Shown here in pieces: positions 44,027 to 60,025 of a stretch of DNA of 64,000 bases. The notes under the pieces are model-generated. The model was not told the DNA's origin. It searched no databases and saw only the letters and a program-made list of their open reading frames with translations. Source of the stretch: Gemmatimonadota bacterium (GTDB lineage Bacteria > Gemmatimonadota > Gemmatimonadetes > Longimicrobiales > Gaopeijiaceae); contig JAOTVA010000005.1 of assembly GCA_029863645.1 (NCBI GenBank), forward strand, positions 14,460 through 78,459, written 5' to 3'. Positions within the stretch are counted from its first letter, which is position 1, and each line of letters opens with the position of its first letter. The position numbers were made by a program, and so were the translations under genes.

Positions 44027-44058
44027 TAGAGCTTCGTAAAGTCCCGCGAAATCACGCG

Positions 44059-44088
44059 TTGACACCCTCGGCGCACGCCTCATAGATT
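44059..44088 (+). promoter_or_regulatory. Candidate sigma70-type promoter for the exbB operon
   Basis: TTGACA (44059..44064), a 17-18 nt spacer, then ATAGAT/TAGATT (44082..44088), about 70 nt upstream of exbB. Confidence 0.4.
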
Positions 44089-44157
44089 GCGCGGTCCTCA
44101 TGCCTGGAGGTACGCCTCCGGCGGGGACGACGGTCTCTCGACAGGAGTGAAGTTCGC

Positions 44158-44904: not shown

Positions 44905-44961
44905 GCGCGGAACCAACGACCGGATCGCCCAGTAACTGTTAAATAGCGAGGCAGGAGCAAC

Positions 44962-45387: not shown

Positions 45388-45390
45388 ACG

Positions 45391-45840
45391 ATGTCGATGA
45401 AAGGCGGTGGGTTCGATAGGAAGTCCAAGGCTTCATCCGAGGTGCCCGCATCATCGCTCGCGGACATCGCGTTCCTCCTTCTCATCTTCTTCATGGTGAC
45501 GACGGTCTTTCAGTCCGACCAGAACCGTCCCATCGAGTGGCCCGAGGCCGAGGCCGCCATGAAGATCGATGAAAAACAGAAGAACATTCTCAATATTTGG
45601 ATGGAGAGAAGCGGTACGGTCTACATGAACGACCAGCCGTTTGGGATGACCGATGTGTCCGCGTTCGTCGGTCCGCTGTATGCGGCGTCCGAGCGCGCGC
45701 TCGTCATCTCGATCAGGTCCGACAGACAGACTCCGTACCGGTTCGTGGATCAGCTCCAGCAGGAGTTGGTGGCCGCCGGTGTGCTGCGTGTCGTATTCGC
45801 GACGCAGTTGGAGCAGAGCATGCAGAGGGAGAGACGATGA
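45391..45840 (+). CDS. exbD: ExbD/TolR biopolymer transport protein (second copy)
   Basis: 149-aa ORF with the N-terminal motif SSLADIAFLLLIFFMVTT. Confidence 0.85.
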   Translation: MSMKGGGFDRKSKASSEVPASSLADIAFLLLIFFMVTTVFQSDQNRPIEWPEAEAAMKIDEKQKNILNIWMERSGTVYMNDQPFGMTDVSAFVGPLYAASERALVISIRSDRQTPYRFVDQLQQELVAAGVLRVVFATQLEQSMQRERR

Positions 45841-46520
45841 GCGCTGCAGAAGCGGTACCCGCAACCTCAATCCTCACGGAGAACGCGAACGACCGGCTCA
45901 AGCGGACGTTCGACTCCTGGTTTTGGGGATCGATGATCATCGCGACCGTGGTGCATTTCGGCGCCTTCGCGTTCGCCCCGGAAATGACGGCTGAGGACTT
46001 CTCGTTCACGTCCGAGGAACTCGAGGCGATCGTCATGCCGCCCGAGATCGAAATCCCGCCGCCGCCGCAGGCCATCGCCCGCCCGGCGACGCCTGTGATG
46101 GCAACCGCGGACATCGACGAAGACATCACGATCGCGCCGACGACGTTCGACGATAACCCGGTCGACGACCTTCCTCCGCCTCCGGAGGAGATCGCGACGG
46201 ACATCTCGGCCGCGCCGACGTTCACTCCCTTCACGGTCGCTCCGTCTCTCCAGAACCTCGCCGAGGTGCAGCGGGCCCTGACCCGCGAGTACCCGACGGT
46301 GCTGAGAGACTCGGGAATCGGCGGAAGGGTGACGGTCTGGTTCTTCATCGACGAAGAGGGACGTGTGCAGCAGACGCGCGTCAACGAGAGTTCCGGGTAT
46401 GAAGCTCTCGACCAGGCTGCGCTCAACGTGGCCGAAGTCTACCGCTTCTCGCCCGCGCTCAACCGTGAGAACCGGGTGCAGGTTTGGGTCTCACTACCAA
46501 TTACGTTCCAGGTACGCTGA
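45837..46520 (+). CDS. tonB: TonB-family energy transducer
   Basis: ORF 45597..46520. ATG 45837 overlaps the exbD stop (ATGA). It has an N-terminal TM, a Pro-rich spacer and a TonB_C domain (YPTVLRDSGIGGRVTVWFFIDEEGRV...). Confidence 0.8.
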   Translation: MSAAEAVPATSILTENANDRLKRTFDSWFWGSMIIATVVHFGAFAFAPEMTAEDFSFTSEELEAIVMPPEIEIPPPPQAIARPATPVMATADIDEDITIAPTTFDDNPVDDLPPPPEEIATDISAAPTFTPFTVAPSLQNLAEVQRALTREYPTVLRDSGIGGRVTVWFFIDEEGRVQQTRVNESSGYEALDQAALNVAEVYRFSPALNRENRVQVWVSLPITFQVR

Positions 46521-46545
46521 GCCCGGTATCTGTCACGGATCCTTG

Positions 46546-46583
46546 AGGACCCCGCCGGCGCTCCGGCGGGGTCCTTTCCTTTT
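46546..46583 (+). terminator. Rho-independent terminator after tonB
   Basis: 13-bp perfect stem AGGACCCCGCCGG / CCGGCGGGGTCCT with a 4-nt loop, followed by TTCCTTTTG. Confidence 0.7.
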
Positions 46584-46612
46584 GTGGAGATGTCCCGCGT
46601 GACCGCAGTTCG

Positions 46613-47338
46613 ATGATGACGACGCAAGCCTCAGCCGGAGCGTATGCTGCCCGGCTGGAGGAGACGCTTCCGATGGTCAGGGACCGGATGAAGCGGGCGG
46701 CCAGCGCTGCCGGCCGATCCGAAGACTCCGTGCGCCTGGTTGCCGTCACGAAGGGTCATCCCGTGGAAGCCATCGACGCCGCGCTCGGCGCGGGCCTGCA
46801 TGACCTCGGTGAAAACCGCGTGCACGAGCTCGATGAGAAGGCCACGGGCCACAGCGGGCCTGATGTGACATGGCACATGATCGGGCACATCCAGGGACGC
46901 AAAGCCCGTCGCGTCGCGGAGTTGGCCGATCTGATCCACTCGATCGACTCCACGAAGCTGGCCGAGCGGCTGTCCCGCATTGCGGTGGAAGACGGCATCG
47001 AGGTCGCGGGGCTAGCCCAGGTGAACACATCGGGCGAGGGTTCCAAGAGCGGCTTCGACCCTGTGGAGGCAGTGGAGCAGATTCATCGAATTGCGGAGCT
47101 GCCGGGATTGCGGATTCAGGGCCTCATGACCATGGCTCCTTACGTGGACAACGACGCCGTTATCGTGGATGCGTTCGCCGGGTTGCGGGACACGCTCGAC
47201 AGGCTTCACGCCATCACGGAGGTCGTCGGTCCCGAGCTGTCGATGGGGATGACGAACGACATGGACATTGCAATCCGCGAAGGGAGCACCATCGTTCGGA
47301 TCGGAACTGCACTTTTCGGAGAGCGAGTGGGGGCCTGA
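46613..47338 (+). CDS. yggS: YggS-family pyridoxal-phosphate homeostasis protein
   Basis: 241-aa ORF with VAVTKGHP (PLP lysine), the HMIGHIQ..K motif, and the fold-type III barrel length. Confidence 0.9.
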   Translation: MMTTQASAGAYAARLEETLPMVRDRMKRAASAAGRSEDSVRLVAVTKGHPVEAIDAALGAGLHDLGENRVHELDEKATGHSGPDVTWHMIGHIQGRKARRVAELADLIHSIDSTKLAERLSRIAVEDGIEVAGLAQVNTSGEGSKSGFDPVEAVEQIHRIAELPGLRIQGLMTMAPYVDNDAVIVDAFAGLRDTLDRLHAITEVVGPELSMGMTNDMDIAIREGSTIVRIGTALFGERVGA

Positions 47339-47339
47339 G

Positions 47340-48134
47340 ATGATCGACCTGACGCCGCTGGATGTTCGGACCAAGCGTGGTGACTTCAAGAAGCTCATGC
47401 GCGGCTACGATCCCCAGGAGGTCGATGTGTTCCTGGAGATGGTCGCAGAGCGCCTGGAGATGTTGACCCGGGAGAACATCGGGCTCCGCGAGCGGTCCGA
47501 GCTGCTCCAGCAGCAGGTGAATTCTCAGACTGGGCGTGAGCAGGCCGTCCAGGATGCGCTCGTGACGGCGCAGGAGCTGCGCGCCGACATTCGTGGACAG
47601 GCGCAGCGCGAAGCGGAGAACCTGCTCAAGGAGGCGGAAACGGAAGGCCGTAGGTTGATCGCCGAGGCAGAGGCCGAGGCCCGCACCAAGCTGCGGACCT
47701 CCGAGCGCCGACTGGACCAGATCGCCGACGCCCTGCAGGAGATGGAGCGCCGCCGCAATCGCTTCCTCACCCACTTCCGCCAGCTACTTGAGCGGGAGCT
47801 CGACGTCGTCCAGGTGGAGGAGGACCGCAAGCCGCTCGAGGAGCAGACGATCGATCTCGACCTCGGCACCAAGTGGGGAGGGGAGGCAGCTGCTTCCGCC
47901 CAGGTCGACCCCGAGGCAACCACCTTGGAAATCCCTGCAGTGGACGGCGTTCCGCCGCCGGACGCACCAATCGATCAGCTGGCTGAGGCGTACCGGCAGC
48001 ACGCCGAGCCCAACACGGCTCCCCCGGCCATGCCGTCGGCTCTGGGCGAAGCCATGCAAGCGGCCCCGCCCGCGCCCAAGGGGCAGAAGCACGACAACCT
48101 GATGCTCTATCTGGACACGGACGACGAGGTCTGA
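47340..48134 (+). CDS. divIVA: DivIVA-domain protein
   Basis: ORF 47268..48134, with the start at ATG 47340. The N-terminal lipid-binding domain is LTPLDVRTKRGDFKKLMRGYDPQEVDVFLE, followed by a coiled coil and a P/A-rich tail. Confidence 0.85.
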   Translation: MIDLTPLDVRTKRGDFKKLMRGYDPQEVDVFLEMVAERLEMLTRENIGLRERSELLQQQVNSQTGREQAVQDALVTAQELRADIRGQAQREAENLLKEAETEGRRLIAEAEAEARTKLRTSERRLDQIADALQEMERRRNRFLTHFRQLLERELDVVQVEEDRKPLEEQTIDLDLGTKWGGEAAASAQVDPEATTLEIPAVDGVPPPDAPIDQLAEAYRQHAEPNTAPPAMPSALGEAMQAAPPAPKGQKHDNLMLYLDTDDEV

Positions 48135-48158
48135 CCGTCCCCCGAGCCATCTGCGAGC

Positions 48159-51100
48159 GTGACCCGCGAGTCGGCTCCCGACCCTGATATGAGCTACCCT
48201 CAGCTTCCCGACGGCCTCCTCGCTATTGAGGAGCAGATGCTCGCCACTTGGCGTGACGAGGATCTGTTCCGACGGACCCTAGCCGAGAACGCGGGGGGCG
48301 AACCGTTCGTGTTCTTCGAGGGGCCGCCGACGGCCAATGGGCGCCCGGGTCTTCACCACGTCATCAGCCGTGCGATCAAGGACCTCGTGTGTCGTCACCG
48401 AGCGATGCAGGGTCGCGCCGTTACGCGCATCGCGGGCTGGGACACCCACGGCCTTCCGGTTGAGATCGAGGCAGAAAAGAAACTCGGCATAAGCGGAAAG
48501 CCCGAGATCGAGGCGTTGGGCATCGCGGAGTTCAATCAGGCGTGCCGCGACTCGGTGTTCACGTTCAAGGAGGAGTTCGAGCAGCTCAGCGAGCGGATAG
48601 GCTACTGGCTCGAGTACTGGCGGCCCTATGTGACACTCGATCCCAAATACATCGAGTCGGTGTGGTGGCTCCTCAAGACGTTCGCCGACCGGGGCCTCTT
48701 GTACCGGGGTCATAAAAGCGTGCCCTACTGCCCTCGTTGCGGCACGGCGCTTTCGTCTCACGAAGTGGCGCTTGGGTACGAGGATGTCGAGGATCCATCG
48801 CTTGTGTTCGTGGCCGAGGTGCTCACCGCGTCGGGCGATCCGGACCCGCAGGGCCGTGCGCTTCTCGCGTGGACCACCACGCCCTGGACTGTGCCGTCGA
48901 ACACCGGCCTCGCAGTGAATCCAGTCCTGGAGTATGCCGAGGTCCGGGGCGACGACCGCCGCTACATCGTCGCGCAGGGAAGGGTGGAGGCGCTATTCGG
49001 GGAGGAGGCCCGTGTCGTCGCGACGTACACGGGGGCCGACCTGGTGGGCTGGCGCTATCGGCGCCCCCTGGAGGTGGTCCCGCTACCGGATGACCTCGGC
49101 AACGGCTGGACGGTCGTGGCCGAGGACTTCGTCAGCGCGTCGGACGGTACTGGGGTGGTGCATATGGCACCGGCTTTCGGGGCTGACGATTACGCGGCTG
49201 GACAGCGGCACGGTCTGCCCATGCTCAACCCGCTCGACGCATCGGGTCACTTCGAGCAGGAAATCGACCTCGTTGGCGGCATGTTCGTGAAGGACGCCGA
49301 CTCCCTCCTCGTCGACGCCCTCCGGGAAAGACAGCTGCTCTTCGATATCAGCACCGTGGTCCACAGCTATCCGCACTGCTGGCGGTGCCACTCTCCTCTA
49401 TTGTATGTGGCGCGCGACACCTGGTTTGCCGCGACGTCGTCGCTCAAGGATGAGCTCCTGGCGGCCAACGATCAGATCAAGTGGCATCCCCCCGAAGTGG
49501 GCGAGGGGCGCTTCGGAGAGTGGCTTCGCGGAAACGTGGACTGGGCGCTCTCGCGCGACCGCTATTGGGGAACGCCGCTCCCCGCGTGGGTCTGCGAAAA
49601 CGATCCGGACCATGTCAGGTGGATCGGGTCACTGGAGGAGCTCGGCCAAGCAGCCGGCGGTCTTCCGGCCGACTTCGACCCGCACCGGCCCTTTATCGAC
49701 GCGGTGCACTTCGATTGCGGCGAGTGCGAGGGGTCGATGCGCCGTACGCCCGAGGTCCTGGACGCGTGGTTCGACTCCGGCGCCATGCCCTACGCACAGT
49801 GGCACTATCCGTTCGAGAACGAATCGGAGTTCGAGGCGCATTTCCCAGCCGACTTCATTTGCGAGGGGGTAGACCAGACGCGGGGTTGGTTCTACTCGCT
49901 TCTGGCCATCTCCACGCTTCTGGGGAACAAGGCGCCGCCGTACCGAAACGTCTTGGTGAACGACATGATCCTCGACGCAGAGGGTCAGAAAATGTCGAAG
50001 TCCAAGGGTAACATCGCCGACCCGTGGGAAGCGATTGGCGACTACGGTGCCGATGCCGTGCGCTGGTATCTGATCACGTCGTCCAATCCGTGGCTACCCA
50101 AGCGGTACGATCCCGAAGGCGTTCGCGAAGCAGCGCGCCGCTTCTTCGACACGCTCTTCAACACCTATCGATTCTTCGCGTTGTACGCGGAGGCCGAGGC
50201 GTGGTCGCCCTCCGACGACGATCCGGCCCCGGAGGAACGCCCATTGATGGACCGGTGGCTGCTTTCGCGTTTGCATGGGCTCGTCGCGGGGGTGTCTTCC
50301 GACCTCGACGAGTATCAGCTCACGCGGGCCTACCGAGTGTTGGGCGACTTCGTCGTCGAGGATCTCTCCAACTGGTATGTCCGCCGGAGTAGGTCGCGTT
50401 TTTGGGGCAATGTCGACGCGACCGACACGCGCGCTGCCTTCCGCACGCTCTGGGAGGTGCTGAGGGACGTATCGCTGCTCGCCGCGCCGTGCATGCCCTT
50501 CTCCGCGGACTGGATGCACCGAGCCCTGACTGACGAGAGCGTCCACCTCCAGCGCTGGCCCGAGCCGCGTGGGGCGAGAGACGAATCGCTCGAGTCCGAT
50601 ATGGATGCTGCCCGAGTCTTGGTGTCCTTGGGTCGCGCCGCTCGTGAGGAAGCCAAGATCCGCGTGAGGCAGCCACTGCGCGCGGTCCAAGCCGTGCTGC
50701 CGGGCGGGAAGGCGTTGAGCCCCGAGGTGCTGGAGGTGGTGCGGGAGGAGCTGAACGTGAAGGAGGTCGGCTTCATTTCGTCGACGGAGGGAATCGTGAC
50801 GCTTGCGGCGCGCCCCAACTACCGCGCGCTCGGCTCCCGCTTCGGCAAAGAAACGAACGACGCAGCCGGTGCGATTCGGGCGCTCAGCCAGGACGAGCTG
50901 GCGAAGTATTTGGGTGGCGAGCGCATCGAGTTCGAGGTGTCCGGGACGGCCCACGCACTGGAAGAGGGCGACGTCGAAGTCCTGCAGGAAGCCAGCACCG
51001 GCCTGCTGGTGAAGGCGGAGGGGGCCTACGCCATCGCTCTCGACCCAACGCTCGACGAAGCTCTTCTGGCCGAAGGCGTGGCGCGCGAGCTGGTGAATCG

Positions 51101-51341
51101 CATCCAGCGCTTGCGCAAGGATGCGGGGCTGGACATTTCGGACCGCATCGAGCTGGCGATCGGTGGACCGCAGGAGATCGTGAGCGCGGCGACCCGACAC
51201 GAGGACTTCATTGGGGGCGAGACGCTGGCGCTGGGAATCTCGGTGGGTGACGGCGCGGCGGGGGCTGGCTATCCGCATGTGCGCGAAATCGACATCGACG
51301 GGACGCCCGCCACCATCGGCCTTCGTCGCTCGGATCGCTAG
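48159..51341 (+). CDS. ileS: Isoleucine--tRNA ligase (long, type 2-like form)
   Basis: 1060-aa ORF with a HIGH-type motif (PPTANGRPGLHHV), GWDTHGLPVE and KMSKSKGN. Confidence 0.98.
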   Translation: MTRESAPDPDMSYPQLPDGLLAIEEQMLATWRDEDLFRRTLAENAGGEPFVFFEGPPTANGRPGLHHVISRAIKDLVCRHRAMQGRAVTRIAGWDTHGLPVEIEAEKKLGISGKPEIEALGIAEFNQACRDSVFTFKEEFEQLSERIGYWLEYWRPYVTLDPKYIESVWWLLKTFADRGLLYRGHKSVPYCPRCGTALSSHEVALGYEDVEDPSLVFVAEVLTASGDPDPQGRALLAWTTTPWTVPSNTGLAVNPVLEYAEVRGDDRRYIVAQGRVEALFGEEARVVATYTGADLVGWRYRRPLEVVPLPDDLGNGWTVVAEDFVSASDGTGVVHMAPAFGADDYAAGQRHGLPMLNPLDASGHFEQEIDLVGGMFVKDADSLLVDALRERQLLFDISTVVHSYPHCWRCHSPLLYVARDTWFAATSSLKDELLAANDQIKWHPPEVGEGRFGEWLRGNVDWALSRDRYWGTPLPAWVCENDPDHVRWIGSLEELGQAAGGLPADFDPHRPFIDAVHFDCGECEGSMRRTPEVLDAWFDSGAMPYAQWHYPFENESEFEAHFPADFICEGVDQTRGWFYSLLAISTLLGNKAPPYRNVLVNDMILDAEGQKMSKSKGNIADPWEAIGDYGADAVRWYLITSSNPWLPKRYDPEGVREAARRFFDTLFNTYRFFALYAEAEAWSPSDDDPAPEERPLMDRWLLSRLHGLVAGVSSDLDEYQLTRAYRVLGDFVVEDLSNWYVRRSRSRFWGNVDATDTRAAFRTLWEVLRDVSLLAAPCMPFSADWMHRALTDESVHLQRWPEPRGARDESLESDMDAARVLVSLGRAAREEAKIRVRQPLRAVQAVLPGGKALSPEVLEVVREELNVKEVGFISSTEGIVTLAARPNYRALGSRFGKETNDAAGAIRALSQDELAKYLGGERIEFEVSGTAHALEEGDVEVLQEASTGLLVKAEGAYAIALDPTLDEALLAEGVARELVNRIQRLRKDAGLDISDRIELAIGGPQEIVSAATRHEDFIGGETLALGISVGDGAAGAGYPHVREIDIDGTPATIGLRRSDR

Positions 51342-51345
51342 CGCC

Positions 51346-52329
51346 GTGGACGCGCCCGGGGAGAAGACGCATTCCCTGACGGTGGACGAGGGCGCGACGG
51401 GCCGCTTGGACCGGTTCATTGCCACCAGTCTCGACCTCTCTCGCACCCGGGTGCAGGGTCTATTGGCGGAGGGCCGCGTCACAGTAGATGGCCGGGTAGC
51501 GAAGAAGTCCGACCCGGCGTCGCCGGGCACGAAGATCCAAGTCGTCGTGCCGCCTGCCCAACCGGTGGACATGCTCCCCGAGGAGATACCGCTCGACGTC
51601 GTGTTCGAGGACGCTCACCTGGCCGTTGTGAACAAGGCAGCAGGAATGGTGGTGCATCCGGCGCCCGGTCACCGCACGGGTACCCTGGTGAATGCGCTGC
51701 TCTGGCGGATGCCGGACATCGAAGGGGTCGGCGGACGACTCCGGCCGGGGATCGTCCACCGACTCGACCGGGACACATCGGGGCTTCTCGTGGTGGCCAA
51801 GACCGACCTGGCACACCGCACACTGTCCGACGCGCTTCGCCGGCGCCGGGTGAAGCGGCTCTACCTCGCCCTCGCCTGGGGACACCTCAAGGAGTCTCCG
51901 CTCACGATTGAGGCGCCGATCGGGCGGGATCGAAAGAACCGTAAGAAGATGGCCGTCGTCCAAGAGGGGCGATCCGCTATGACGCGTGTCCGGGTGCGCG
52001 AGCGTTTGCTGCGGGCCGATCTGCTCGACGTGGCTCTCAAGACGGGACGTACCCACCAGATTCGCGTGCACCTAGCGTACGCGGGGCACCCGGTGGTGGG
52101 GGATTCGGTTTACGGGGACGGTTGGGAGCGCGGGATGGGCGGGCCTACCAGGCACTGGGCCATTCAATTGGCCCGGAGCACCCCACGGCAGTTTCTGCAC
52201 GCACAACAACTCTCTTTCGACCATCCCATCTCGGGAGAGCGCCTGAGCTTCACGGCCCCGCTTCCGCCCGATCTCGCGGAGGTGGCAGCATGGGCCCGGG
52301 GTACCACCGGCTCCCAGAACCCCGCGTGA
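51346..52329 (+). CDS. rluD: RluA-family 23S rRNA pseudouridine synthase (RluD-like)
   Basis: ORF 51211..52329, with GTG 51346 lying 5 nt after the ileS stop. It has an S4 domain and the catalytic HRLDRDTSGLLVVAK. Confidence 0.9.
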   Translation: MDAPGEKTHSLTVDEGATGRLDRFIATSLDLSRTRVQGLLAEGRVTVDGRVAKKSDPASPGTKIQVVVPPAQPVDMLPEEIPLDVVFEDAHLAVVNKAAGMVVHPAPGHRTGTLVNALLWRMPDIEGVGGRLRPGIVHRLDRDTSGLLVVAKTDLAHRTLSDALRRRRVKRLYLALAWGHLKESPLTIEAPIGRDRKNRKKMAVVQEGRSAMTRVRVRERLLRADLLDVALKTGRTHQIRVHLAYAGHPVVGDSVYGDGWERGMGGPTRHWAIQLARSTPRQFLHAQQLSFDHPISGERLSFTAPLPPDLAEVAAWARGTTGSQNPA

Positions 52330-52426
52330 CACGGGCCTTTTTTTCAGGGACGTTCCGGCCGATACTTATCGTCCGACGTGCGCTTCGGCGCTCTAACGTC
52401 CTCTGCGGGAGCCCGCGACAGCGGCT

Positions 52427-54241
52427 ATGTCGGATCTCGATCCCAAGCTGACATTCGATTCCTTCGTGGTGGGCCCGGCGAACCGTCTGGCCTCCGCAGC
52501 CGCGCGTCGTGCTGCCGACTCGCCGGGCACGAGCTACAACCCCCTGTTCCTCTACTCCGCACCGGGTCTGGGGAAGACGCACATCCTCACGGCCATCGCG
52601 CACCAGTCGGCGAAGGGTGAAGCCAAGAAGGTCGAGTACATGGCGCTGGAGGAGTATCTCGAGCGCTTGGAGGGTTCGCTCCAAGCCGGGCAGGGCGACG
52701 GTGTCTACGGTGAACTGGACATCTTGTTGCTGGACGACGTCCAGTTCCTGACAGGGCAGCCCGAGGCTCAGGAGATGCTGCTCAAGACCCTCGATCAGCT
52801 CAGCACCGCCGGGGGCCAGATCGTGCTCGCCAGCGACAGACCCCCTGCTGACATCGACGGACTCGACGCCCGGCTGCTTTCACGGTTCTCCGGGGGCTTG
52901 ATCGTAGATCTGGGACCGCCTGAGTACGAGACTCGCGTCGCCATCATCCTCAGGAAGTCCGAAGAACGCGGACAGACCCTCGAGGATGGCGTCGCGGAAG
53001 CGGTGGCGAAAGCGCCGTTCAAGAACGTCCGAGAGCTCGGCGGGGTCCTCAACAAGATCTTCGCGACGCAGGAGCTCGAAGGTCGCCAGGTCTCTTCGTC
53101 CGAGGTGACCAAACTCCTTCAGCAACAGGATCAGGTCGCAGCCCTGGGGGGCGGTTCCGACGAATTCGGGTCCTTCCTCACCGAGCTGGCCAGCTCCGTT
53201 GCGGTGGTGGTGGAGAGCAAGGAAGAGCCGTGGCGAAAAGCGATACGTGAAGCCATCGAATCCGCTGACCGGCAGGGCTTCCTGGTGCACCGCCTGGAGT
53301 CCCAGTTCGGTGAGACCGAGCCGAAGGGCTGGGAGAAGCTCGTCGCGACGTTCAAGGCCGATCTGCAGCGGCTGCGCGAGATCGACAACGAGTTGGAGCG
53401 CCTGGGCAACCCGTGGCCGGAGGCTGCCCAGGGGGTGCTCATGGACCCCGACCGGCTGGAAGAGGGCGAGGCGTTGCTCGCGTCCGTTCGGGAGCGCCAA
53501 AGGCCCTTCCCGAGGCTCGGTGACGGTCCGCTCCTGCATGACCTTTCGGGCTTCGAGGCCATCGCGTTGAAGGCGGCCGCCCAGTTCGTGGGTGAGGAGA
53601 AGCCCGAGTACAACCCGCTCTTCATGTGGTCGGGGAACGAAAGGGTGGCTCTGACGTTGCTGGCCGCGGTCGGACGCACGTACAAAGAGTCTTTCCCGGA
53701 TCAGCGGATGGCCGTTGCCTCTGTGGCGCACTTCGCGGAGGACTTCATCCGTGCGCTCGCCGAGGGGGTCGCCGGGGCGTGGCGCGAGCGCTGGTGGACG
53801 GTTGACCTCCTGCTCGTACACGGCATCCAGGAGTTGTCGGAAACCGAACGCGCGCAGGACGAGTTCTTCCATCTGTACGAGGCTCTGAAGCGTCGGGGAG
53901 CGCGTATGATGCTCGTGGCCAACCGCGCGCCATCGAGCGTCGAGTCCATCGATGAACGGCTACGCTCCCGCTTCGAAGGGGGTCTCGTGCTGGAGCTGAC
54001 CAGCGGCCAGGCGGTGGACCTGGAGCTTGTCGAGCACGCGGCCGCGGCGGCGGAAGAAGGCATCTTCGTGCCGGACTTGGAGGCAGAAACGAAAAAGGGA
54101 CCGGATACGGGCACGATGGAGCCCGTTCCGGCCGCGCTACCCGAGCCGCCGAGCAAGGGGGGGGCGTGGTTCCCCGGCCCGGAGAACGTGGTCATCCATT
54201 GGCCTCGGATCGAAGAGCTCCTCATTGAAGAACTGGACTAG
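52427..54241 (+). CDS. DnaA-like protein with two tandem DnaA-type AAA+ modules (second degenerate), no domain I and no DNA-binding domain IV
   Basis: 604-aa ORF. Module 1 (aa 8-225) aligns by eye to DnaA domain III: TFDSFVVGPANRLA, YNPLFLYSAPGLGKTH, ILLLDDVQF, LASDRPP, RLLSRF, NVRELGG. Module 2 (from aa 395) reads YNPLFMWSGNERVALT, LLLVHGIQ, DEFFHLYEAL, RLRSRFEGGL, with the Walker A Lys and Walker B acids lost. Confidence 0.8.
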   Translation: MSDLDPKLTFDSFVVGPANRLASAAARRAADSPGTSYNPLFLYSAPGLGKTHILTAIAHQSAKGEAKKVEYMALEEYLERLEGSLQAGQGDGVYGELDILLLDDVQFLTGQPEAQEMLLKTLDQLSTAGGQIVLASDRPPADIDGLDARLLSRFSGGLIVDLGPPEYETRVAIILRKSEERGQTLEDGVAEAVAKAPFKNVRELGGVLNKIFATQELEGRQVSSSEVTKLLQQQDQVAALGGGSDEFGSFLTELASSVAVVVESKEEPWRKAIREAIESADRQGFLVHRLESQFGETEPKGWEKLVATFKADLQRLREIDNELERLGNPWPEAAQGVLMDPDRLEEGEALLASVRERQRPFPRLGDGPLLHDLSGFEAIALKAAAQFVGEEKPEYNPLFMWSGNERVALTLLAAVGRTYKESFPDQRMAVASVAHFAEDFIRALAEGVAGAWRERWWTVDLLLVHGIQELSETERAQDEFFHLYEALKRRGARMMLVANRAPSSVESIDERLRSRFEGGLVLELTSGQAVDLELVEHAAAAAEEGIFVPDLEAETKKGPDTGTMEPVPAALPEPPSKGGAWFPGPENVVIHWPRIEELLIEELD

Positions 54242-54254
54242 GAGCTAGCGACCC

Positions 54255-55871
54255 ATGGCGATCGAAGGCGCACTCCAAGACGTCAGCCTGGCCGATATCT
54301 GTCAGTTGCTGGGCATGGGGAAGAAGACCGGGTGCCTGAGCATCACGGACCGGTCCAACTTCGGGTACATCTATTTCGAGCAGGGACGCATCATCTACGC
54401 GTCCGTCCTCAATCGGCGGGACCGCCTGGGCGAGCTTCTCGTGCGCAACCACGTCATCACGCGCAAAGCGCTCTCCGAAGCCGTCGAGACCCAGAGCACG
54501 GCCAAGGGGAGGCGGCTGGGTGAGATCTTGGTCGATGTGGGCGCCGTAAGCCTGGAGGACCTGCAGCGGTACATCCAGGCTCAGATCGAGGAGGCGGTCT
54601 ACCACCTCTTCACGTGGAATCAGGGGTCCTTCCACTTCGACACCGACCAGATGCCCGACGAGGAGGGCCTCTACCTGGTGAGTATTCCCGCCGAGGCGCT
54701 CCTCATGGAAGGCGCACGGCGCGTCGACGAGTGGAGTCTGGTGGAGAAGAAGATCCCTTCGTTCGACGTGGTCTTCCAGCTCGATAAGAATCCCGACCAG
54801 TCGTCGGAGGACGTCGAGTTGACCAAGGACCAGAAGAAGGTCCTTCCGTATATCGATGGCGTCCGCACGGTCACCGACATCATGGACGAAGCGGGCCTCG
54901 TCGAGTTCGAGACGGGCAAGGCGCTGTACGGACTCATCCAGGCCGGTTTCGTGTCCCGTGCCGGGGAGCGCAGCACTGAGGAGGAGACCGGCGGCGACGA
55001 GGCGCTCTCGCAGCATCTCAACGTCGGTACCGCCTTCTATCGGTCGGGTATGCTGGAGGATGCCGAGCGGGAGTTCGAGCAGGCGATCGCGATCGATCCG
55101 AAGCAGGCGCGGGCGAACTTCATGATGGGCTTGATCGCGTTCCGGCGGGGTAAGCTCGAGGAATCGCTCAAACACTTCGGTGCGATGCCACCGGGGGCGG
55201 GCGACTACTCGATTCATCGGAACACGGCCCTGGCCCTCGAGTTGATGGGCCAGTATAAGGATGCTCTGCGCGAGCTCGACTCAGCGCTCATCGCACGCCC
55301 GGAAGACCATGAAGTTCACCTGGCGCGCGCTGCGGTCCATCTCAAGGCCCGTGACGTGGCGAAAACACTCGCGGCGCTTCGCCAGTACCGAACGTCACCC
55401 CGCGTGAAGAAACCCTCCGCCCGCTACTACGCGTACACGGTCCTGGCCTCCGCAGTGAGTGGTGACCTCGACTACGCGGTCGCGGTCGGTCGGGAAGGGA
55501 TGGGTCACTACCCAGACTCGGGCCCGATCCTCGTCAACACGGGCGCGGTGCTGGAGCGTCGGGGTGAAGTGGAGGCGGCGCAGGCCCTCTATAAGCGGGC
55601 GACCGGACTCAATCCGCCCGCGCCCCAGGCCCACAAGAACCTCGGAGATCAGGCCTACGCACACGGCGACATGCAGGGCGCGCAGGCCCAATACGAGAAG
55701 GCCGTGAAGCTGTCACCGCGCCTCGGGGACGACGTCTATCTGCGGCTCGGTACGCTCGCGTACAAAGGCAACGACCGGGACATGGCCCGCCTCTTGTGGC
55801 GCAGGGCAGCGGACATCAACCCGCACAACGAGGCCGTGAAGGCGAATCTGGAGATGTTCGCCGGCGAGTGA
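54255..55871 (+). CDS. DUF4388 (PATAN-type) domain, tandem MshEN/T2SSE_N-like motif, C-terminal TPR repeats
   Basis: 538-aa ORF. The N-terminus GALQDVSLADICQLLGMGKKTGCLSITDRSNFGYIYFEQGRIIYA fits DUF4388. It is followed by RLGELLVRNHVITRKALSEAVETQ-STAKGR-RLGEILVDVGAVSLEDLQRYIQAQ. The C-terminal half has multiple TPR-like repeats (e.g. AQAHKNLGDQAYAHGDMQGAQAQYEKAVKLSP). Confidence 0.8.
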   Translation: MAIEGALQDVSLADICQLLGMGKKTGCLSITDRSNFGYIYFEQGRIIYASVLNRRDRLGELLVRNHVITRKALSEAVETQSTAKGRRLGEILVDVGAVSLEDLQRYIQAQIEEAVYHLFTWNQGSFHFDTDQMPDEEGLYLVSIPAEALLMEGARRVDEWSLVEKKIPSFDVVFQLDKNPDQSSEDVELTKDQKKVLPYIDGVRTVTDIMDEAGLVEFETGKALYGLIQAGFVSRAGERSTEEETGGDEALSQHLNVGTAFYRSGMLEDAEREFEQAIAIDPKQARANFMMGLIAFRRGKLEESLKHFGAMPPGAGDYSIHRNTALALELMGQYKDALRELDSALIARPEDHEVHLARAAVHLKARDVAKTLAALRQYRTSPRVKKPSARYYAYTVLASAVSGDLDYAVAVGREGMGHYPDSGPILVNTGAVLERRGEVEAAQALYKRATGLNPPAPQAHKNLGDQAYAHGDMQGAQAQYEKAVKLSPRLGDDVYLRLGTLAYKGNDRDMARLLWRRAADINPHNEAVKANLEMFAGE

Positions 55872-56869
55872 TTCGTTCCGCGGCTTCGCTGCTCGTGGTG
55901 GTCCTTGCCTTGGCTCAGGGCCCGCCGCCGCTCTTCGCCCAGATGCCCGACTCGCTCGCCGGCGAGGAGTACCTGACGCGCGCGGGGAGTCGGGCCACCA
56001 TCCATTTTGTGCGCGAGGACTCACTATTGGCCTTGCGCGTCCTCGATCTGATCGACGGGCAAGCGCCCCTGCCCGGGCTTCCGGACTCTTTTCCGTCCCG
56101 TGTGACCGCGGTGATCGCGCACGGTCCACAGGCCTTCGACGAGCTCACCGGCGGCGTCGTGCCCGAGTGGCGGGCTGGTGTCGCGATTCCTTCGGCTAAC
56201 ATGTTCATCGTCCCGAGCGACGAGGGCCGCAGCCTGGTCGACCGCGAGGGCAGGCGCACCCTTCGCCACGAATGGGCGCACCTCGGTCTGCATGCCTACC
56301 TGGGCGATCTGCGCGCGCCTCGTTGGTTCGACGAAGGGTACGCGCAGTGGGTGTCCGGTGGCTTCGAGGCGGGCGAGGCCTGGAGGTTGCGCGTCCTGTT
56401 GGCGCTGGGGCGCGCTCCCCCCATGGACTCCCTCACGTTGCGTTGGCCGAGCGGCCGAGAAGAGGCGAGGACCGCGTACCTGCTCGCAGCGAGTGCCGTG
56501 ACCTATTTGCTGGAGCCGGGGGGAGAGCGAGGGCTCGAGCTGTTCCTGGATCGCTGGCGTGAGCAACGCTCCTTCGACGAGGCGCTGCGGACCACTTTCG
56601 GGGTGACGCCTGGCCGACTCGAGACAGACTGGGCGCGCCACGTGCGTGCGCGCTACGGATGGCTGTTCGTGCTCAGCCATTCAGCACTCTTCTGGGCACT
56701 TCTGGCACTCGTCTTGCTCTTCATGGTGCGCGTGCGAAAGGGACGGAATCGGGAGAAGCTGGCTCGCATGCGGGCGTCGGAGTTGCCCGACCAGCCCGCG
56801 TATTGGGTCGTGGACCAGACGGAGTCCGGACCCCGCCTGCCACCCCCGGGGATATCAGAAAAGCCATGA
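55868..56869 (+). CDS. Membrane-anchored HExxH metallopeptidase-like protein (MA-clan like)
   Basis: ORF 55796..56869. GTG 55868 overlaps the upstream stop. It has a signal-like N-terminus, RHEWAHLGLH plus a downstream FDEGYAQW (candidate third ligand Glu), and a C-terminal TM (LFWALLALVLLFMV). Confidence 0.65.
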   Translation: MIRSAASLLVVVLALAQGPPPLFAQMPDSLAGEEYLTRAGSRATIHFVREDSLLALRVLDLIDGQAPLPGLPDSFPSRVTAVIAHGPQAFDELTGGVVPEWRAGVAIPSANMFIVPSDEGRSLVDREGRRTLRHEWAHLGLHAYLGDLRAPRWFDEGYAQWVSGGFEAGEAWRLRVLLALGRAPPMDSLTLRWPSGREEARTAYLLAASAVTYLLEPGGERGLELFLDRWREQRSFDEALRTTFGVTPGRLETDWARHVRARYGWLFVLSHSALFWALLALVLLFMVRVRKGRNREKLARMRASELPDQPAYWVVDQTESGPRLPPPGISEKP

Positions 56870-58209
56870 GTGACTCCACCCCCCCGCGAATCCTCGTCGT
56901 CGACGACGACGTGGACGGACTCGAAGTCCTTCGCACTCGACTCGTCCATGCCGGCTACGAGGTTGAAACCGCAGAGAGCGCCGAGAAGGCGCTGTCACGC
57001 GTGAAAGCGTTCGACCCGGGGCTTATCGTCACAGACGTGCGCATGTCCGGGATGACGGGGCTCGAGCTTCTGGAGAAGGTGCGTGCCTCCATGGACTCCG
57101 TTGAGGTTGTGGTCATGACTGCCCACGACGACATGCAGACCGCTGTCGCCGCCATGAAAGGCGGCGCCTTCGATTTTCTCGTGAAGCCCGTCGATCCCAA
57201 GGCCGTGCAGGGCCTGGCGGAGCGCTGCTTCCGGGAGCGAGCGCTGACGGTGGAAGGCGGAGAGCCGGATGTTGTCGCCGCGCTACCGCGAGGACGTTTG
57301 GTCGGCCGGGATCCTCGCATGATCGACATCTACAAGACGATCGGTGCGTTGGCCGGCAACCGGGCCACCGTGCTCGTTCGGGGTGAGACCGGCACGGGAA
57401 AGGAAGTCATCGCCCGCGCGATCCACGAGCACTCCGAACACGTCGACGAGCCGTTCATCGCGGTGAACTGCAGCGCGCTGACGGATACGCTCCTCGAGTC
57501 GGAGCTCTTCGGTCACGTGAAGGGTGCGTTCACCGGAGCGACGGGCTCGAGAAAGGGCTACTTCGAGTTGGCAGGGAAGGGGACCATCTTCCTCGATGAG
57601 ATCGGCGATACGAGCCCGGAGTTCCAGACCAAGCTTCTGAGGGTGCTCCAAGAGCGGCGCTTCTACCCCGTTGGAGGGGAGGAGCCGAGGAAGACCGCAG
57701 CGCGCGTGATCGCCGCGACGCATCAGCCCGTCGAGCAGCTGATCGAGGAAGGACGGTTTCGCGAGGACCTCTACTTCCGCCTCAAGGTCGTTGAGATCAC
57801 CGTACCTCCACTCCGCGAGCGGCGTCGTGACATCGAGCTGGTTGCAACGGCCCTGCTCGGCAGGGTTCGCGACGAGACGAGCCGCGATATTCGGCGAATC
57901 TCCGACGACGCGATGGCCAGGCTCATGACGTACGATTGGCCCGGCAACGTTCGTGAACTCGAAAACACACTAATGAGGGCGGCCATCGTGGCGCGTGGGA
58001 CGGTCATCGGCGTCGACCACCTCATTCTGGAGGACGGCGCGAACCCTGGGGGCACGGACCTCACGCTGAAGGGGGCGATCCTGCGGCACGTCCACTTGGT
58101 TCTCGACCGAGCCGGTGGTGACCGCGCGTCCGCAGCAGAACTCCTCGGCATCACGAAGAAGGAATTGGACCGACAGCTCGCGTTGACCGAGGCTTCTCCC
58201 TCCACTTAG
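56866..58209 (+). CDS. Sigma54-dependent response regulator (NtrC family enhancer-binding protein)
   Basis: ORF 56659..58209. ATG 56866 overlaps the upstream stop (ATGA). It has a receiver domain (ILVVDDD...VTDVRMSGM), an AAA+ domain with GETGTGKE, the GAFTGA loop and ESELFGH, and a C-terminal Fis-type HTH. Confidence 0.92.
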   Translation: MSDSTPPRILVVDDDVDGLEVLRTRLVHAGYEVETAESAEKALSRVKAFDPGLIVTDVRMSGMTGLELLEKVRASMDSVEVVVMTAHDDMQTAVAAMKGGAFDFLVKPVDPKAVQGLAERCFRERALTVEGGEPDVVAALPRGRLVGRDPRMIDIYKTIGALAGNRATVLVRGETGTGKEVIARAIHEHSEHVDEPFIAVNCSALTDTLLESELFGHVKGAFTGATGSRKGYFELAGKGTIFLDEIGDTSPEFQTKLLRVLQERRFYPVGGEEPRKTAARVIAATHQPVEQLIEEGRFREDLYFRLKVVEITVPPLRERRRDIELVATALLGRVRDETSRDIRRISDDAMARLMTYDWPGNVRELENTLMRAAIVARGTVIGVDHLILEDGANPGGTDLTLKGAILRHVHLVLDRAGGDRASAAELLGITKKELDRQLALTEASPST

Positions 58210-58211
58210 TT

Positions 58212-58409
58212 GTGTCGATCATGGCCAAAAGAAAGAAGGCGGAGCCGGCGGCTCTGAAGTTCACGAAGGAGAACGGGTACCTGGCAGCGGCGGGCGTTGT
58301 CTGCCTGGCGCTCGGGTACTGGCTCCTAGCTCAGGGCTCGATCACGGCTGCCCCACTCCTGCTGGTGCTCGCCTACGTGGTTCTGCTGCCGATGGCCATC
58401 ATCCGCTAG
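58212..58409 (+). CDS. Small two-TM membrane protein (DUF3098-like)
   Basis: 65-aa ORF starting 2 nt after the ntrC-like stop. The basic N-terminus AKRKKAEPAALKFTKENGY is followed by two hydrophobic helices. The family assignment is from memory. Confidence 0.5.
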   Translation: MSIMAKRKKAEPAALKFTKENGYLAAAGVVCLALGYWLLAQGSITAAPLLLVLAYVVLLPMAIIR

Positions 58410-58447
58410 ACCCCAGTATTCATGCCGATTTTCCGGCATTGGACGTC

Positions 58448-58522
58448 GGGCGCTTAGCTCAGCCTGGTTAGAGCACCTGCCTTACAAGCAGGGGGTCGCT
58501 GGTTCGAGTCCAGCAGCGCCCA
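58448..58522 (+). tRNA. tRNA-Val (anticodon TAC)
   Basis: Acceptor stem GGGCGCT/AGCGCCC, D-arm GCTC-AGCCTGGTTA-GAGC, anticodon stem CCTGC/GCAGG with loop CTTACAA, and T-arm GCTGG-TTCGAGT-CCAGC. The discriminator is A and no CCA is encoded. Confidence 0.92.
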
Positions 58523-58654
58523 TTTATTGGTAGGGGCCGCCCTATTGCACGGTCTTCCCATCAACGCATACATTCATCTACGTGTCTTCCCCTACGTAGT
58601 TGTAGTGGAAGGCTCAGGAGCTGGTAGCCGTAGTTCACTTGCTCGAGGGAGAGG

Positions 58655-60025
58655 ATGACCATGGAGCACCAAGGTTCGAAGTCCACGCTTGTGGCCGCGA
58701 CACTCGCATTGGTTGCGGTGTTCGCGTTCCAGGGTGCTGCGAACGCACAGGTCGCGTTCAGTTCTTCGGCTGGTGCCGACGACCTGACGTATACCGCCGA
58801 CGTAGCGCCCATCATTCAGCAGAATTGCCAGGTCTGCCACCGGCCGGGAGGCATCGGCCCGATGGATCTGGTGACCTACGACGATGCGCGTCGATATGCA
58901 CGCCGCATCCGTGAGCAGGTCGCGAACCGCCTGATGCCGCCTTACTACTACGACAACGACATCGGCATCCAGGACCTCCAGCACGACTGGCGCCTCTCGG
59001 ATGAGGACATCGCCACGGTAGTCGCATGGGTGGACCAGGGCTCGGTCGAAGGTGATCCGGCCGACATGCCTGTGGCGGTGCTCGCGGACACAGAGGATTG
59101 GTCGCTTGCTGCGGCGCTCGGCCAGCCGGACATCATTGCCCCGTCGACGCCGATCGACGTACCGGCAGCGGGCAACGACATGTGGCATCGCCCCATCGTT
59201 CCGACAGGAATCACCGAAGAGCGCTGCATCAAGGCGCTTCAGGTGAAGCCGGCCGGTAACGCGAAGGGTGTTGTGCACCACGCGAACTCGACGTTCCAAC
59301 TCGAGACCGACGACGGTGGCTTCGAGTCCTCCGGCGACCGTGCGACCGAGTACGCCATGGGCAAGCTCGGCGAGTTGATTCCTGACGGCGTGTGCCGCGT
59401 AATCCCGGCCAACGCCTATGTCGCGTGGGACATCCACCTCTATCCCGGTGGACTCGGTGCCGCGGCCCCGAACGACGTTCTCGAGGACAACGTGGTCGAG
59501 TTGGGCATCTGGCTGCATCCGGCCGACTACGAGTACGAGTACAAGCAGGACCTGGCGCTCTACGGCATCCGCGAGGGCGAGTTGGTCATGAAGCCCCATG
59601 GCACGGCCATGACTCAGGGCTTCCGGACGTTCGACCATCCGGTGCGTATCGATAGCTTCCAGCCTCACGGGCACCTGCGCATGCGCTCGGCGTCCCTCGA
59701 GATCCTCTACCCGGAGACGGGTCGGGTCGAGATCGTCAGCATGGTCTCGAACTGGAGCGCCACGTGGCACCAGAGCCACATCTACGGCGAGAACTCGGCA
59801 CCCTTGGTGCCGGCCGGGGCGGTTCTGATCATGAAGCAGTGGTATGACAACACGGAGAACAACCCGAACGTTGTCGACGCAGATCAGTGGGTCGACGGTG
59901 GCAGCCGCACCGCGGATGAGATGTCTCACGCGTGGATCGCGGTGACGCACCTCGACGAGGAAGGGTATCAAGAGCTTCTCGAGCAGCGCGAGGCGAACGA
60001 GGAGCGTAGGATTACCGACGATTAG
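58655..60025 (+). CDS. Secreted protein: CxxCH heme-c-type module fused to a PHM/DBH-like (copper type II monooxygenase fold) domain
   Basis: 456-aa ORF with RBS GGGAGAGG and a signal peptide. DVAPIIQQNCQVCHRPGGIGPM contains CxxCH at 58826..58840. Downstream are VVHHAN (59276..59281), WDIHLYP, QPHGHLRM (59666..59674) and TADEMSHAW (Met at 59921). This ordering matches the CuH (HH..H) and CuM (HxH..M) ligand pattern. Confidence 0.7.
   Translation: MTMEHQGSKSTLVAATLALVAVFAFQGAANAQVAFSSSAGADDLTYTADVAPIIQQNCQVCHRPGGIGPMDLVTYDDARRYARRIREQVANRLMPPYYYDNDIGIQDLQHDWRLSDEDIATVVAWVDQGSVEGDPADMPVAVLADTEDWSLAAALGQPDIIAPSTPIDVPAAGNDMWHRPIVPTGITEERCIKALQVKPAGNAKGVVHHANSTFQLETDDGGFESSGDRATEYAMGKLGELIPDGVCRVIPANAYVAWDIHLYPGGLGAAAPNDVLEDNVVELGIWLHPADYEYEYKQDLALYGIREGELVMKPHGTAMTQGFRTFDHPVRIDSFQPHGHLRMRSASLEILYPETGRVEIVSMVSNWSATWHQSHIYGENSAPLVPAGAVLIMKQWYDNTENNPNVVDADQWVDGGSRTADEMSHAWIAVTHLDEEGYQELLEQREANEERRITDD

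Follow-up and report, generated by a model that had tools for sequence, protein, structure and literature searches.

We analyzed a block of five genes (g1 to g5, positions 52427-58409, plus strand) in a stretch of 64,000 nucleotides from a Gemmatimonadota bacterium (assembly GCA_029863645.1, contig JAOTVA010000005.1), which is called the window hereafter. The results supported that the five genes form a conserved, translationally coupled module and not a chance run of genes. Judging from the sequences, the block appears to be a signalling operon specific to the phylum Gemmatimonadota, with an older core of four proteins. With moderate confidence, we read it as a polarity or envelope signalling module that would be gated by ATP through g1 and probably by cyclic di-GMP (c-di-GMP) through g2, and that would carry a response-regulator/sigma54 arm in the window's own protein subfamily (type L). 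The genes, and the border that follows them in this genome, are listed below.

52427-54241, plus strand: g1, 604 amino acids (aa), tandem AAA+ protein of the DnaA domain III type
54255-55871, plus strand: g2, 538 aa, cytoplasmic protein with a PATAN (DUF4388) domain and about eight tetratricopeptide repeats (TPRs)
55868 (GTG)-56869, plus strand: g3, 333 aa, HExxH zinc peptidase of the MA clan
56866 (ATG)-58209, plus strand: g4, 447 aa, NtrC-family response regulator and sigma54 activator
58212-58409, plus strand: g5, 65 aa from GTG or 62 aa from the ATG at 58221, microprotein with two transmembrane (TM) helices
58448-58522, plus strand: tRNA-Val(TAC), called by ARAGORN, downstream border in this genome and outside the system

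Conserved order and coupling of the five genes

Reading of the sequence gave a spacing of 13 nt between g1 and g2. The GTG of g3 (55868-55870) overlaps the TGA of g2 (55869-55871) as GTGA, and the ATG of g4 (56866-56868) overlaps the TGA of g3 (56867-56869) as ATGA. The TAG of g4 (58207-58209) is followed by tt and then by the GTG of g5 at 58212, a gap of 2 nt. The in-frame ATG at 58221 agrees better with the N-termini of g5 orthologues ('MAK...') and is the probable true start, in which case the gap is 11 nt. An earlier note on this DNA had given the five reading frames with their coordinates, plus strand, and four junctions, all of which matched the sequence. Its domain calls for the five products hold in Pfam and NCBIfam profile searches, and its two borders were confirmed as an rluD-type pseudouridine synthase (PF00849 plus S4) directly 5' of g1 and the tRNA-Val gene.

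Related loci were then compared. The type-L sample consists of the best 80 of 297 related loci, one genome per GTDB species, obtained with two subfamily-specific peptide patterns; the scan used the subfamily alignment, so these loci sample the window's subfamily only. Type L is the name of a protein subfamily and not a verified taxon, the submitters' labels being mostly Longimicrobiales or Gemmatimonadota and in some cases Gemmatimonadales. The relatives are metagenome-assembled genomes (MAGs) with submitter taxonomy, and their gene boundaries are approximate. When seven window proteins were searched by tblastn in the 80 loci, ileS-rluD-g1-g2-g3-g4-g5 were collinear on one strand in every locus that was long enough, with g1 showing 50-87% identity to that of the window. 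The median junctions in type-L species, as approximated by tblastn, were 97 nt for rluD/g1, 0 nt for g1/g2, -4 nt for g2/g3, 0 nt for g3/g4, and ~45 nt for g4/g5, and rluD and g1 abut in the most divergent loci. The tightly coupled module that the earlier note had described was thus borne out by the junction medians and by synteny, the check that it had itself proposed: the five genes are co-localised, in the same order, in 80 type-L loci.

An exhaustive profile-free search matched g1 to ~3,150 proteins at E <= 1e-30, a count that includes canonical DnaAs. The top matches were tandem proteins of 550-700 aa with identity down to ~25-30%, and thousands of members of the family occur in metagenomes. 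The g1 protein itself is on record, with an identical sequence, from a Gemmatimonadota MAG. All taxon-named members, the most divergent and low-G+C ones included, are Gemmatimonadota, so the 'FCB-like' relatives of the earlier note are unnecessary. Two contigs of one MAG (isolate CA_2019_TPBS_88; loci L011 and L015) each carried a complete type-L module, with g1 proteins 76% and 79% identical to that of the window; either the bin is mixed or the genome has two copies.

Conserved order could also arise if unrelated genes sat in a frozen co-directional housekeeping stretch (tilS-ftsH-cdaA-exbBD-tonB-yggS-divIVA-ileS-rluD-...) and formed no system at all. The same-strand genes farther 5' of rluD are tilS, ftsH, cdaA, exbB, tonB, yggS, divIVA, and ileS, the whole region of ~20 kb upstream of the module is housekeeping and lies on a single strand, and ileS and rluD match g1-g5 in synteny. 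However, the start/stop overlaps are maintained at three junctions across species, and a conserved promoter-like element and a terminator-like hairpin part rluD from g1. Furthermore, g1, g2, g3, and g5 occur together in a sister subfamily (type G) despite the 9-10 genes inserted there after rluD, and the four core families, which seem phylum-restricted or phylum-specific, travel together. We regard a mere juxtaposition as highly improbable.

The fixed position also bears on a cassette for anti-phage defence or of mobile-element origin, as the combination of an AAA+ ATPase, TPRs, and a peptidase might suggest. The resemblance lies in a superficial domain mix only, and the RtcR/PspF-type matches of g4 in PADLOC reflect its generic sigma54 AAA+ domain. 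The proteins g1, g2, g3, and g5 had no specific PADLOC family, with generic AAA+/TPR matches at E of 1e-4 or weaker; neither an integrase nor repeat borders were found; and the chromosomal position, with ileS-rluD on one side and core genes on the other, is the same in 80 species, unlike that of a defence island. The PADLOC result and the fixed position effectively exclude this reading, to which we give hardly any credence.

The core follows mglA in a chemosensory cluster of the sister subfamily

Type G comprised four loci (L005, L006, L087, and L088), labelled Gemmatimonadales or Gemmatimonadaceae, in which g1 has ~650 aa and is 33-41% identical to the window g1. The order begins with rluD, (cheW), cheY, cheA, cheC, a TPR protein of ~890 aa, and a PATAN-TPR paralogue. 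It continues with a TPR/Roadblock protein, two Roadblock proteins, a small GTPase (mglA), g1, and g2, and ends with a TPR protein, the peptidase, a protein of 57-61 aa (called in two loci), and a TPR protein of 580 aa. As observed, 9-10 signalling genes sit between rluD and g1. In L087 and L088, cheR-cheD-cheB-cheW-cheW stands between g2 and the part with the TPR protein and the peptidase, whereas L005 and L006 have mglB-like, mglA, g1, g2, TPR, and peptidase genes, followed by that for the 61-aa protein. The gene rsmH then follows in L005 and L088, and ftsL-ftsI were also called in L005; in these two loci the cluster reaches the division (dcw) genes.

The GTPase of type G is a true MglA, as it matched M. 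xanthus MglA structures over its full length with E = 1e-76, and one Roadblock protein matched MglB weakly. The mglA/g1 junction measured -4 to +8 nt across the four loci. In L005, the 61-aa protein shows 47% identity to g5, while the peptidase and the PATAN-TPR protein after g1 are orthologous to g3 and g2, the latter with 44% identity. A sigma54 activator was not present in any of the four clusters, indicating that the activator is a lineage-specific insert and not the ancestral output. Therefore, g1, g2, g3, and g5 appear to be an older phylum-wide core, into which g4 would have been inserted in type L.

Because the type-G core stands directly behind mglB-mglA within a che cluster, we read it as a likely accessory of the Ras-like-GTPase/chemosensory control of polarity, either of a motility apparatus or of division-site placement. 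It is known from comparative work that PATAN genes occur next to mglA/mglB (PMC4316618). Regulators with a PATAN domain bind the motor of the type IV pilus (bioRxiv 10.1101/2021.06.11.447907), and M. xanthus PATAN proteins are among the candidates tied to the regulation of the type IVa pilus (PMC11580455).

No methyl-accepting chemoreceptor gene was called in the 20-22 kb covered for the type-G loci. In the window, cdaA (c-di-AMP synthase), exbB, tonB, yggS, divIVA, ileS, and rluD precede the module at 43167-52329, and the run yggS-divIVA-ileS-rluD resembles the tail of the Gram-positive division (dcw) cluster. With divIVA on one side in the window and rsmH (ftsL-ftsI) on the other in L005 and L088, division genes flank the module on one side or the other.

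g1 is a tandem ATPase derived from DnaA domain III modules

Two Bac_DnaA AAA+ stretches (PF00308, E = 9e-74) were found in g1, with no other Pfam match.

g1, residues: domain 1, ~1-235; helical middle domain, ~246-358; domain 2, ~378-525; disordered, 537-594; then an acidic C-terminal motif

The DnaA model TIGR00362 gave 335.4 bits, summed from the two stretches, against a cut-off of 343.9, and the Hda model TIGR03420 gave 111 bits against 194.8. Residues 2-233 of g1 align to positions 102-337 of TIGR00362, so that the protein starts at domain III, and its N-terminal 230 residues matched DnaA domain III in the PDB with E = 4e-47. An AlphaFold2 (AF2) model built with 35 homologues (pLDDT 80) contained two alpha/beta modules like DnaA domain III, a helical domain between them, and a short terminal helix. 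Foldseek of this model gave a TM-score of 0.90 to domain III of B. subtilis DnaA (8bv3); it returned nothing informative for the helical middle domain, and DnaA and Hda were followed by generic two-ring AAA+ proteins (p97). Domains I and IV of DnaA were found neither by Pfam nor in the model, where the C-terminus consists of the second AAA+ module and a disordered tail. Specific to the family are the middle domain (...FRDPDRxxEAExLL...), the second DnaA-type module, and the C-terminal motif.

Residue conservation was examined in 88 sequences, 84 of them type L. In domain 1, the Walker A residues G47, G49, K50, and H52 (GLGK(T/S)H) are invariant but for one gapped row, sensor I D137/R138 and box VII R149 are invariant, and Walker B D103/D104 (LLLDD), box VII R153, and sensor II R202 (NVRE) are nearly so. 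Domain 1 therefore has the Walker A/B motifs, box VII arginine finger, and sensor II that mark DnaA domain III. Domain 2 has lost Walker A/B in all 84 type-L sequences, which have WS..E.. and L(V/I)(H/Y)G instead, whereas type-G g1 retains GxGKTH and DD; box VII R511 and R515 are kept in 88/88. A dead ATP site with a kept arginine finger suggests that domain 2 donates its finger to domain 1 or to a partner site. The C-terminal motif E..VxxWP....LIEELD is also conserved (E586, W592, P593, and E601; alignment form EKvVWxWPxxxxRLIEEL). From these residues, ATP gating via g1 is plausible.

The same properties could place g1 in replication control. As an Hda-like protein, it would dock on DnaA-ATP via its arginine finger(s), stimulate or block hydrolysis or filaments, and respond to c-di-GMP through g2, while the membrane pair and the activator would report envelope or growth status, so that initiation would be coupled to the cell cycle. 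Domain 1 is indeed very close to DnaA domain III in all three comparisons (335/344 bits with TIGR00362, E = 4e-47, and TM-score 0.90), g1 has no DNA-binding domain, as is the case for Hda, and both arginine fingers are invariant although domain 2 cannot bind ATP, which fits a finger acting in trans. In addition, divIVA is near in the window, as are rsmH (L005 and L088) and ftsL-ftsI (L005) in relatives. However, the Hda model stopped at 111 bits against 195, and the QL[SD]LF-like clamp-binding motif of Hda was not seen when the N-terminus of g1 (MSDLDPKLTFDSF) was read. Moreover, the gene to which type-G g1 is coupled is mglA rather than dnaA, dnaN, or any other gene for replication, and a search of the window for dnaA or oriC features found g1 alone. 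We consider replication control unlikely.

The closest canonical DnaAs, one of them from Smithellaceae, were uninformative as a clue to the origin of g1. In the databases, JGI labels members of the family 'chromosomal replication initiator protein DnaA', and NCBI labels them 'DnaA/Hda family protein'. Since g1 has no DNA-binding domain, the first of these names is very probably wrong, and a misnamed g1 could mislead the prediction of replication origins in Gemmatimonadota MAGs.

g2 carries a c-di-GMP-type motif within its PATAN domain

g2 matched PF14332 at residues 4-161 with E = 3e-40 and 137 bits against a cut-off of 25, and multiple TPR families matched as well. The PF14332 profile has 122 positions, fewer than the residues that it covers here, which implies an insert in the PATAN domain.

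54417-54584, plus strand: residues 55-110 of g2, an alpha-helical insert within PATAN, with a tandem MshEN-type motif

The NCBIfam c-di-GMP motif NF053729 scored 48.9 bits over g2 residues ~47-118 (cut-off 38), and phmmer against the PDB matched the same residues to PilF, PilB, and MshE at their N-termini. Among the 81 orthologues, R57, G59, L62, G89, L92, and Q110 are conserved in all, and L58 and Q80 in 80. These conserved positions are the diagnostic ones in the definition of the tandem MshEN motif (PMC5013675). On the strength of this motif, c-di-GMP gating via g2 is plausible. The whole protein shows 48-90% identity over the 80 type-L loci and is often the best conserved of the five. The second PATAN-TPR paralogue in the type-G che cluster also has the c-di-GMP motif (NF053729, 46.8 bits). 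A reading of g2 as PEP-CTERM PrsT was ruled out on cut-offs.

g3 and g5, a possible membrane pair

The peptidase g3 matched PF13485 (Peptidase_MA_2) with 38.2 bits against a cut-off of 32.4. Its HExxH motif reads HEWAH, and H134, E135, H138, and the downstream Glu ligand E156 are present in 77/77 species. Hydropathy analysis gave an N-terminal signal or anchor at residues 5-24 and a C-terminal TM segment at 264-292, followed by a tail of 41 residues; the catalytic domain is presumably periplasmic and the tail cytoplasmic, as deduced from this topology. Flagellinolysin, the sole NCBIfam match of g3, was rejected at 29.5 bits against a cut-off of 205. The microprotein g5 has no Pfam family. It consists of a basic N-terminus and two TM helices in a hydrophobic hairpin with a QGSIT loop, and its motif GYWLLAQGSITAAPLLLVLxYVVLLPLAII is conserved in 46 orthologues, type G included.

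This pair could itself be the business end of the operon. In such a case, g3 with g5 would process a substrate at the surface or in the periplasm, for example a pilin, flagellin, or adhesin, g1 and g2 would be its cytoplasmic regulators or assembly chaperones, and g4 would tune expression. The catalytic site is complete in all 77 species, g5 is always downstream of g3 across the phylum, the weak NCBIfam match is to a flagellinolysin HExxH family, and a putative sigma54 promoter is positioned for g4 and g5 specifically. Nevertheless, the locus has no conserved gene for a substrate, and the family to which g3 was assigned is a generic one. In L087 and L088, moreover, five che genes plus one for a TPR protein stand between g2 and g3, indicating that the link of g1/g2 to g3/g5 is looser than that between g1 and g2. 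We therefore regard envelope proteolysis as distinctly unlikely to be the main task of the operon.

g4 is an NtrC-family activator with a candidate promoter inside g3

g4 consists of a receiver (REC) domain, a Sigma54_activat domain with GAFTGA, and a weak HTH_8; PF00072, PF00158, and PF25601 matched. The residues D13, D14, D57, and K107 are conserved in 72/72, and four positions of GAFTGA are invariant, the other two being found in 65/72 and 71/72. With a receiver Asp, a GAFTGA AAA+ domain, and an HTH, g4 belongs to the NtrC-family enhancer-binding proteins. The evidence for the DNA-binding part is weak, as HTH_8 reached 18.4 bits against a cut-off of 22. All NCBIfam equivalog scores were below cut-off (NtrC 418.5/558.6, AtoC 392/714, and FlbD 291.5/750), and PEP-CTERM PrsR was rejected at 354.5 bits against 502.6. 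A cognate kinase for g4 is not present in the locus.

Three cis elements were found in and upstream of the block.

56703-56718, plus strand: putative sigma54 promoter TGGCAC-N5-TTGCT (TGGCACTCGTCTTGCT), where g3 codes for its TM segment, 148 nt before the ATG of g4
52338-52368, plus strand: promoter-like TTTT-N19-GATACTTA with GATACT(TA), 60 nt upstream of the ATG of g1
52321-52344, plus strand: weak hairpin CCCG-cgtgaca-CGGG followed by T7, spanning the rluD stop

The site TGGCACTCGTCTTGCT was the sole perfect sigma54 match in the window, against a chance expectation of 0.02. When related loci totalling 1.58 Mb were searched on both strands, 25 of 33 near-consensus sites (<=1 mismatch, GG and GC intact) fell at this position in g3. 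The site encodes L-A-L-V-L-L, and 20 of the 28 species with this peptide use GCA and TTG, although GCA makes up 6% of Ala codons and TTG 7% of Leu codons in those genomes; third positions in the spacer vary (CTC/CTG/TTG and GTC/CTC). Site-bearing species, with g1 identities of 59-100%, are interleaved with site-less ones, so that inheritance alone is unlikely to explain the pattern. Thus, the sequence at 56703-56718 has GG and GC in the -24/-12 register, lies upstream of a gene, and is conserved beyond the demands of coding. We conclude that it is a candidate sigma54 promoter for g4-g5 on which, in part of type L, selection appears to act at the nucleotide level. The simplest model would be that g4 regulates its own expression.

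Other sigma54-type sites were seen. In L031, where g3 has no sigma54 site, a perfect TGGCAC-N5-TTGCA lies 3' of g5 (L031:16383-16398, plus strand), which hints that the activator may also drive a gene after the operon in some genomes. In the window, two overlapping sites with one mismatch each lie at 4550-4577, between dnaK (2574-4508, minus strand) and a nucleoside transporter gene (4767-6263, plus strand). The site CGGCACATCGATTGCA is on the minus strand, ~54 nt upstream of the dnaK start, and TGGCACACGACGTGCA is on the plus strand and precedes the transporter gene by ~200 nt. If a match within g1 (53646) that has one mismatch is set aside, these two are the only other good candidates in the window and are possible targets of an activator like g4.

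Upstream of g1, the layout of a hairpin and T-run recurs at orthologous loci with differing stem sequences. The hairpin at the rluD stop is weak, given that it was not listed by the consensus terminator scan, and it is likely to be a leaky terminator between rluD and the module. GATACT was present upstream of g1 in 69/84 loci, and in 59/61 loci the T-run ends at a distance of 16, 17, or 19 nt from GATACT. The TTTT/GATACT element occurs once in the 64-kb window. A terminator-like hairpin together with a dedicated promoter- or operator-like element suggests that, in most type-L genomes, a separate transcription unit begins with g1. A consensus scan of 51000-59000 gave no sigma70-type promoter and no convincing terminator, the upstream element having emerged from the cross-species alignment. 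Its core GCCGATAC resembles the -10 box of sigma28 (GCCGATAA), while the -35 part does not fit; we regard this as a lead only.

Proposed mechanism

As to contacts between the proteins, ligand binding, topology, and the cellular process under control, we infer the following from the sequences. Binding of c-di-GMP to the PATAN insert would alter what the TPR scaffold of g2 holds, and the candidate cargoes would be the acidic ...WP....LIEELD tail of g1 and/or the cytoplasmic tail of g3. g1 would cycle between ATP-dependent head-to-tail assemblies, in which both arginine fingers are used, and a disassembled state, while the g3-g5 pair would form the membrane and periplasmic end. In type L, an NtrC-type regulator would have entered the operon between g3 and g5, along with its own sigma54 promoter in g3, and phosphorylated g4 would drive sigma54 transcription of at least g4 and g5.

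Several observations weigh against this reading of the operon as a polarity or envelope signalling module. Neither the 64-kb window nor the flanks of <=10 kb in any of the 80 type-L loci contain mglA, mglB/Roadblock, cheA, or cheC, so that the link to polarity is borrowed from four type-G loci whose g1 is 33-41% identical. Because ileS and rluD are equally syntenic, gene order alone is no proof of a shared function. The motif in g2 departs from the published MshEN motif in having His for Gly at the first turn and a spacer of 6 instead of 5 residues. For g2, the AF2 model made from its sequence alone could not be used (pLDDT 42), and in the model of g1 the inter-domain geometry was uncertain (pTM 0.46). 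The sigma54 site in g3 is perfect in just 18/77 species loci and near-consensus in ~25, and no inverted repeat suggesting an activator site was seen upstream of it.

The working hypothesis of the earlier note was a nucleotide-gated module for cell-cycle, polarity, or envelope signalling with sigma54-dependent transcription as its output. Its module is supported, its gating by ATP and possibly c-di-GMP is plausible, and its polarity option gains ground, whereas sigma54 as a general output and the FCB label are not supported. Its cell-cycle option would draw on the DnaA ancestry of g1 and on the neighbouring division genes only. Gating by ATP is made plausible by Walker A/B, sensor I/II, and arginine finger residues of g1 domain 1 that are invariant or nearly so, and gating by c-di-GMP by a score above the NF053729 cut-off, the matches to PDB N-termini, and near-invariant residues. 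The polarity option gains support from g1 abutting or overlapping mglA within the type-G che cluster. The transcriptional output applies at most to type L, as the activator has no counterpart in the type-G cluster.

A more specific idea, which we offer as speculation and hold to be rather doubtful, is that g1 is a DnaA-derived nucleotide switch of a new kind, which would have taken over the self-assembly chemistry of the initiator (ATP site and arginine finger in trans) for use away from oriC in Gemmatimonadota. It would act on MglA and the PATAN-TPR adaptor and mark the pole or the division (budding) site. It might also tie polarity to replication initiation via a residual affinity for DnaA. 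If g1 does work in the control of polarity or of the division site, it would be a clear reuse of the DnaA fold as a non-replicative switch.

Targeted searches of the accessible literature library found no paper that describes the tandem DnaA-like family or the five-gene set, in agreement with the earlier view that these parts had not been characterised together. The component superfamilies and the association of PATAN with Mgl are known. New as variants are the gene combination, the ATPase that appears to be a tandem derived from DnaA, the occurrence of an MshEN motif inside a PATAN domain in such a context, and the putative codon-embedded sigma54 promoter. Gemmatimonadota are abundant in soils and waters while their cell biology is almost unexplored, and the operon is a well-conserved signalling locus whose core joins an initiator-fold ATPase with polarity parts (MglA/MglB, Che, and PATAN) and a second-messenger-type site. 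Testable predictions are given by the putative sigma54 promoter held by rare codons in g3, by the promoter-like element before g1, and by residues K50, R153, and R515 of g1, R57, Q80, R87, and Q110 of g2, E135 of g3, and D57 of g4.

Other features of the window

The stretch from the g5 stop to tRNA-Val contains an inverted repeat with perfect 6-bp arms (ATGCCG-attttc-CGGCAT, 58422-58439) and no T-run after it; an RNA processing site and a weak terminator are possibilities. Two genes have no visible tie to the module. These are a gene at 26980-30072 (plus strand) for a Ser/Thr protein kinase of 1030 aa with N-terminal zinc ribbons and a C-terminal Big_2 domain, and a MoxR-type AAA+ gene at 11477-12493 (minus strand).

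Comparison with known systems

The nearest arrangement is that of MglA/MglB and Frz in Myxococcus xanthus. The type-G g1 and g2 come right after mglB-like and mglA genes in a cheW-Y-A-C(-R-D-B) cluster, whereas the window locus itself has no MglA, MglB, or Che genes. Furthermore, no described Mgl/Frz system has a DnaA-type tandem ATPase, an MA-clan peptidase, or a microprotein.

With PatA, PixG, and PixE of cyanobacteria, g2 shares the PATAN domain. It differs in that it has no receiver domain and its PATAN domain is fused to TPRs, the receiver being on the separate activator g4. PatA-type regulators act via protein-protein contact with polar or membrane machinery (bioRxiv 10.1101/2021.06.11.447907), and the title of another paper points to contacts of PatA with the divisome in Anabaena (PMC7380572).

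The receptors MshE, PilB, and PilF resemble g2 in the tandem RLGxxLV...Q motif, which in g2 scores above the NCBIfam motif cut-off. In g2, however, this motif forms a helical insert of a TPR-fused PATAN domain, whereas theirs is the N-terminus of a secretion ATPase, and the g2 version has the 6-residue spacer and the His at the first turn.

g4 is similar to NtrC-family activators that are expressed from a sigma54 promoter of their own operon, as it combines REC, AAA+, and Fis-type HTH domains and has a consensus -24/-12 site upstream. In contrast to these activators, it scores below the named cut-offs, has no adjacent kinase, and would be served by a promoter inside the coding sequence of the preceding gene.

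Finally, g1 can be compared with Hda and DnaA in the regulatory inactivation of DnaA (RIDA). Its modules are those of DnaA domain III, with the Walker A/B motifs, the box VII arginine finger, and sensor II, and, similarly to Hda, it has no DNA-binding domain IV. However, Hda is a single AAA+ module, whereas g1 is a tandem of two, and the helical domain between them is specific to the family. In type L, the second of the ATP sites of g1 is dead, its acidic C-terminal motif is conserved, and both equivalog scores are below cut-off. The genomic partners of g1 are signalling genes and not replication genes.

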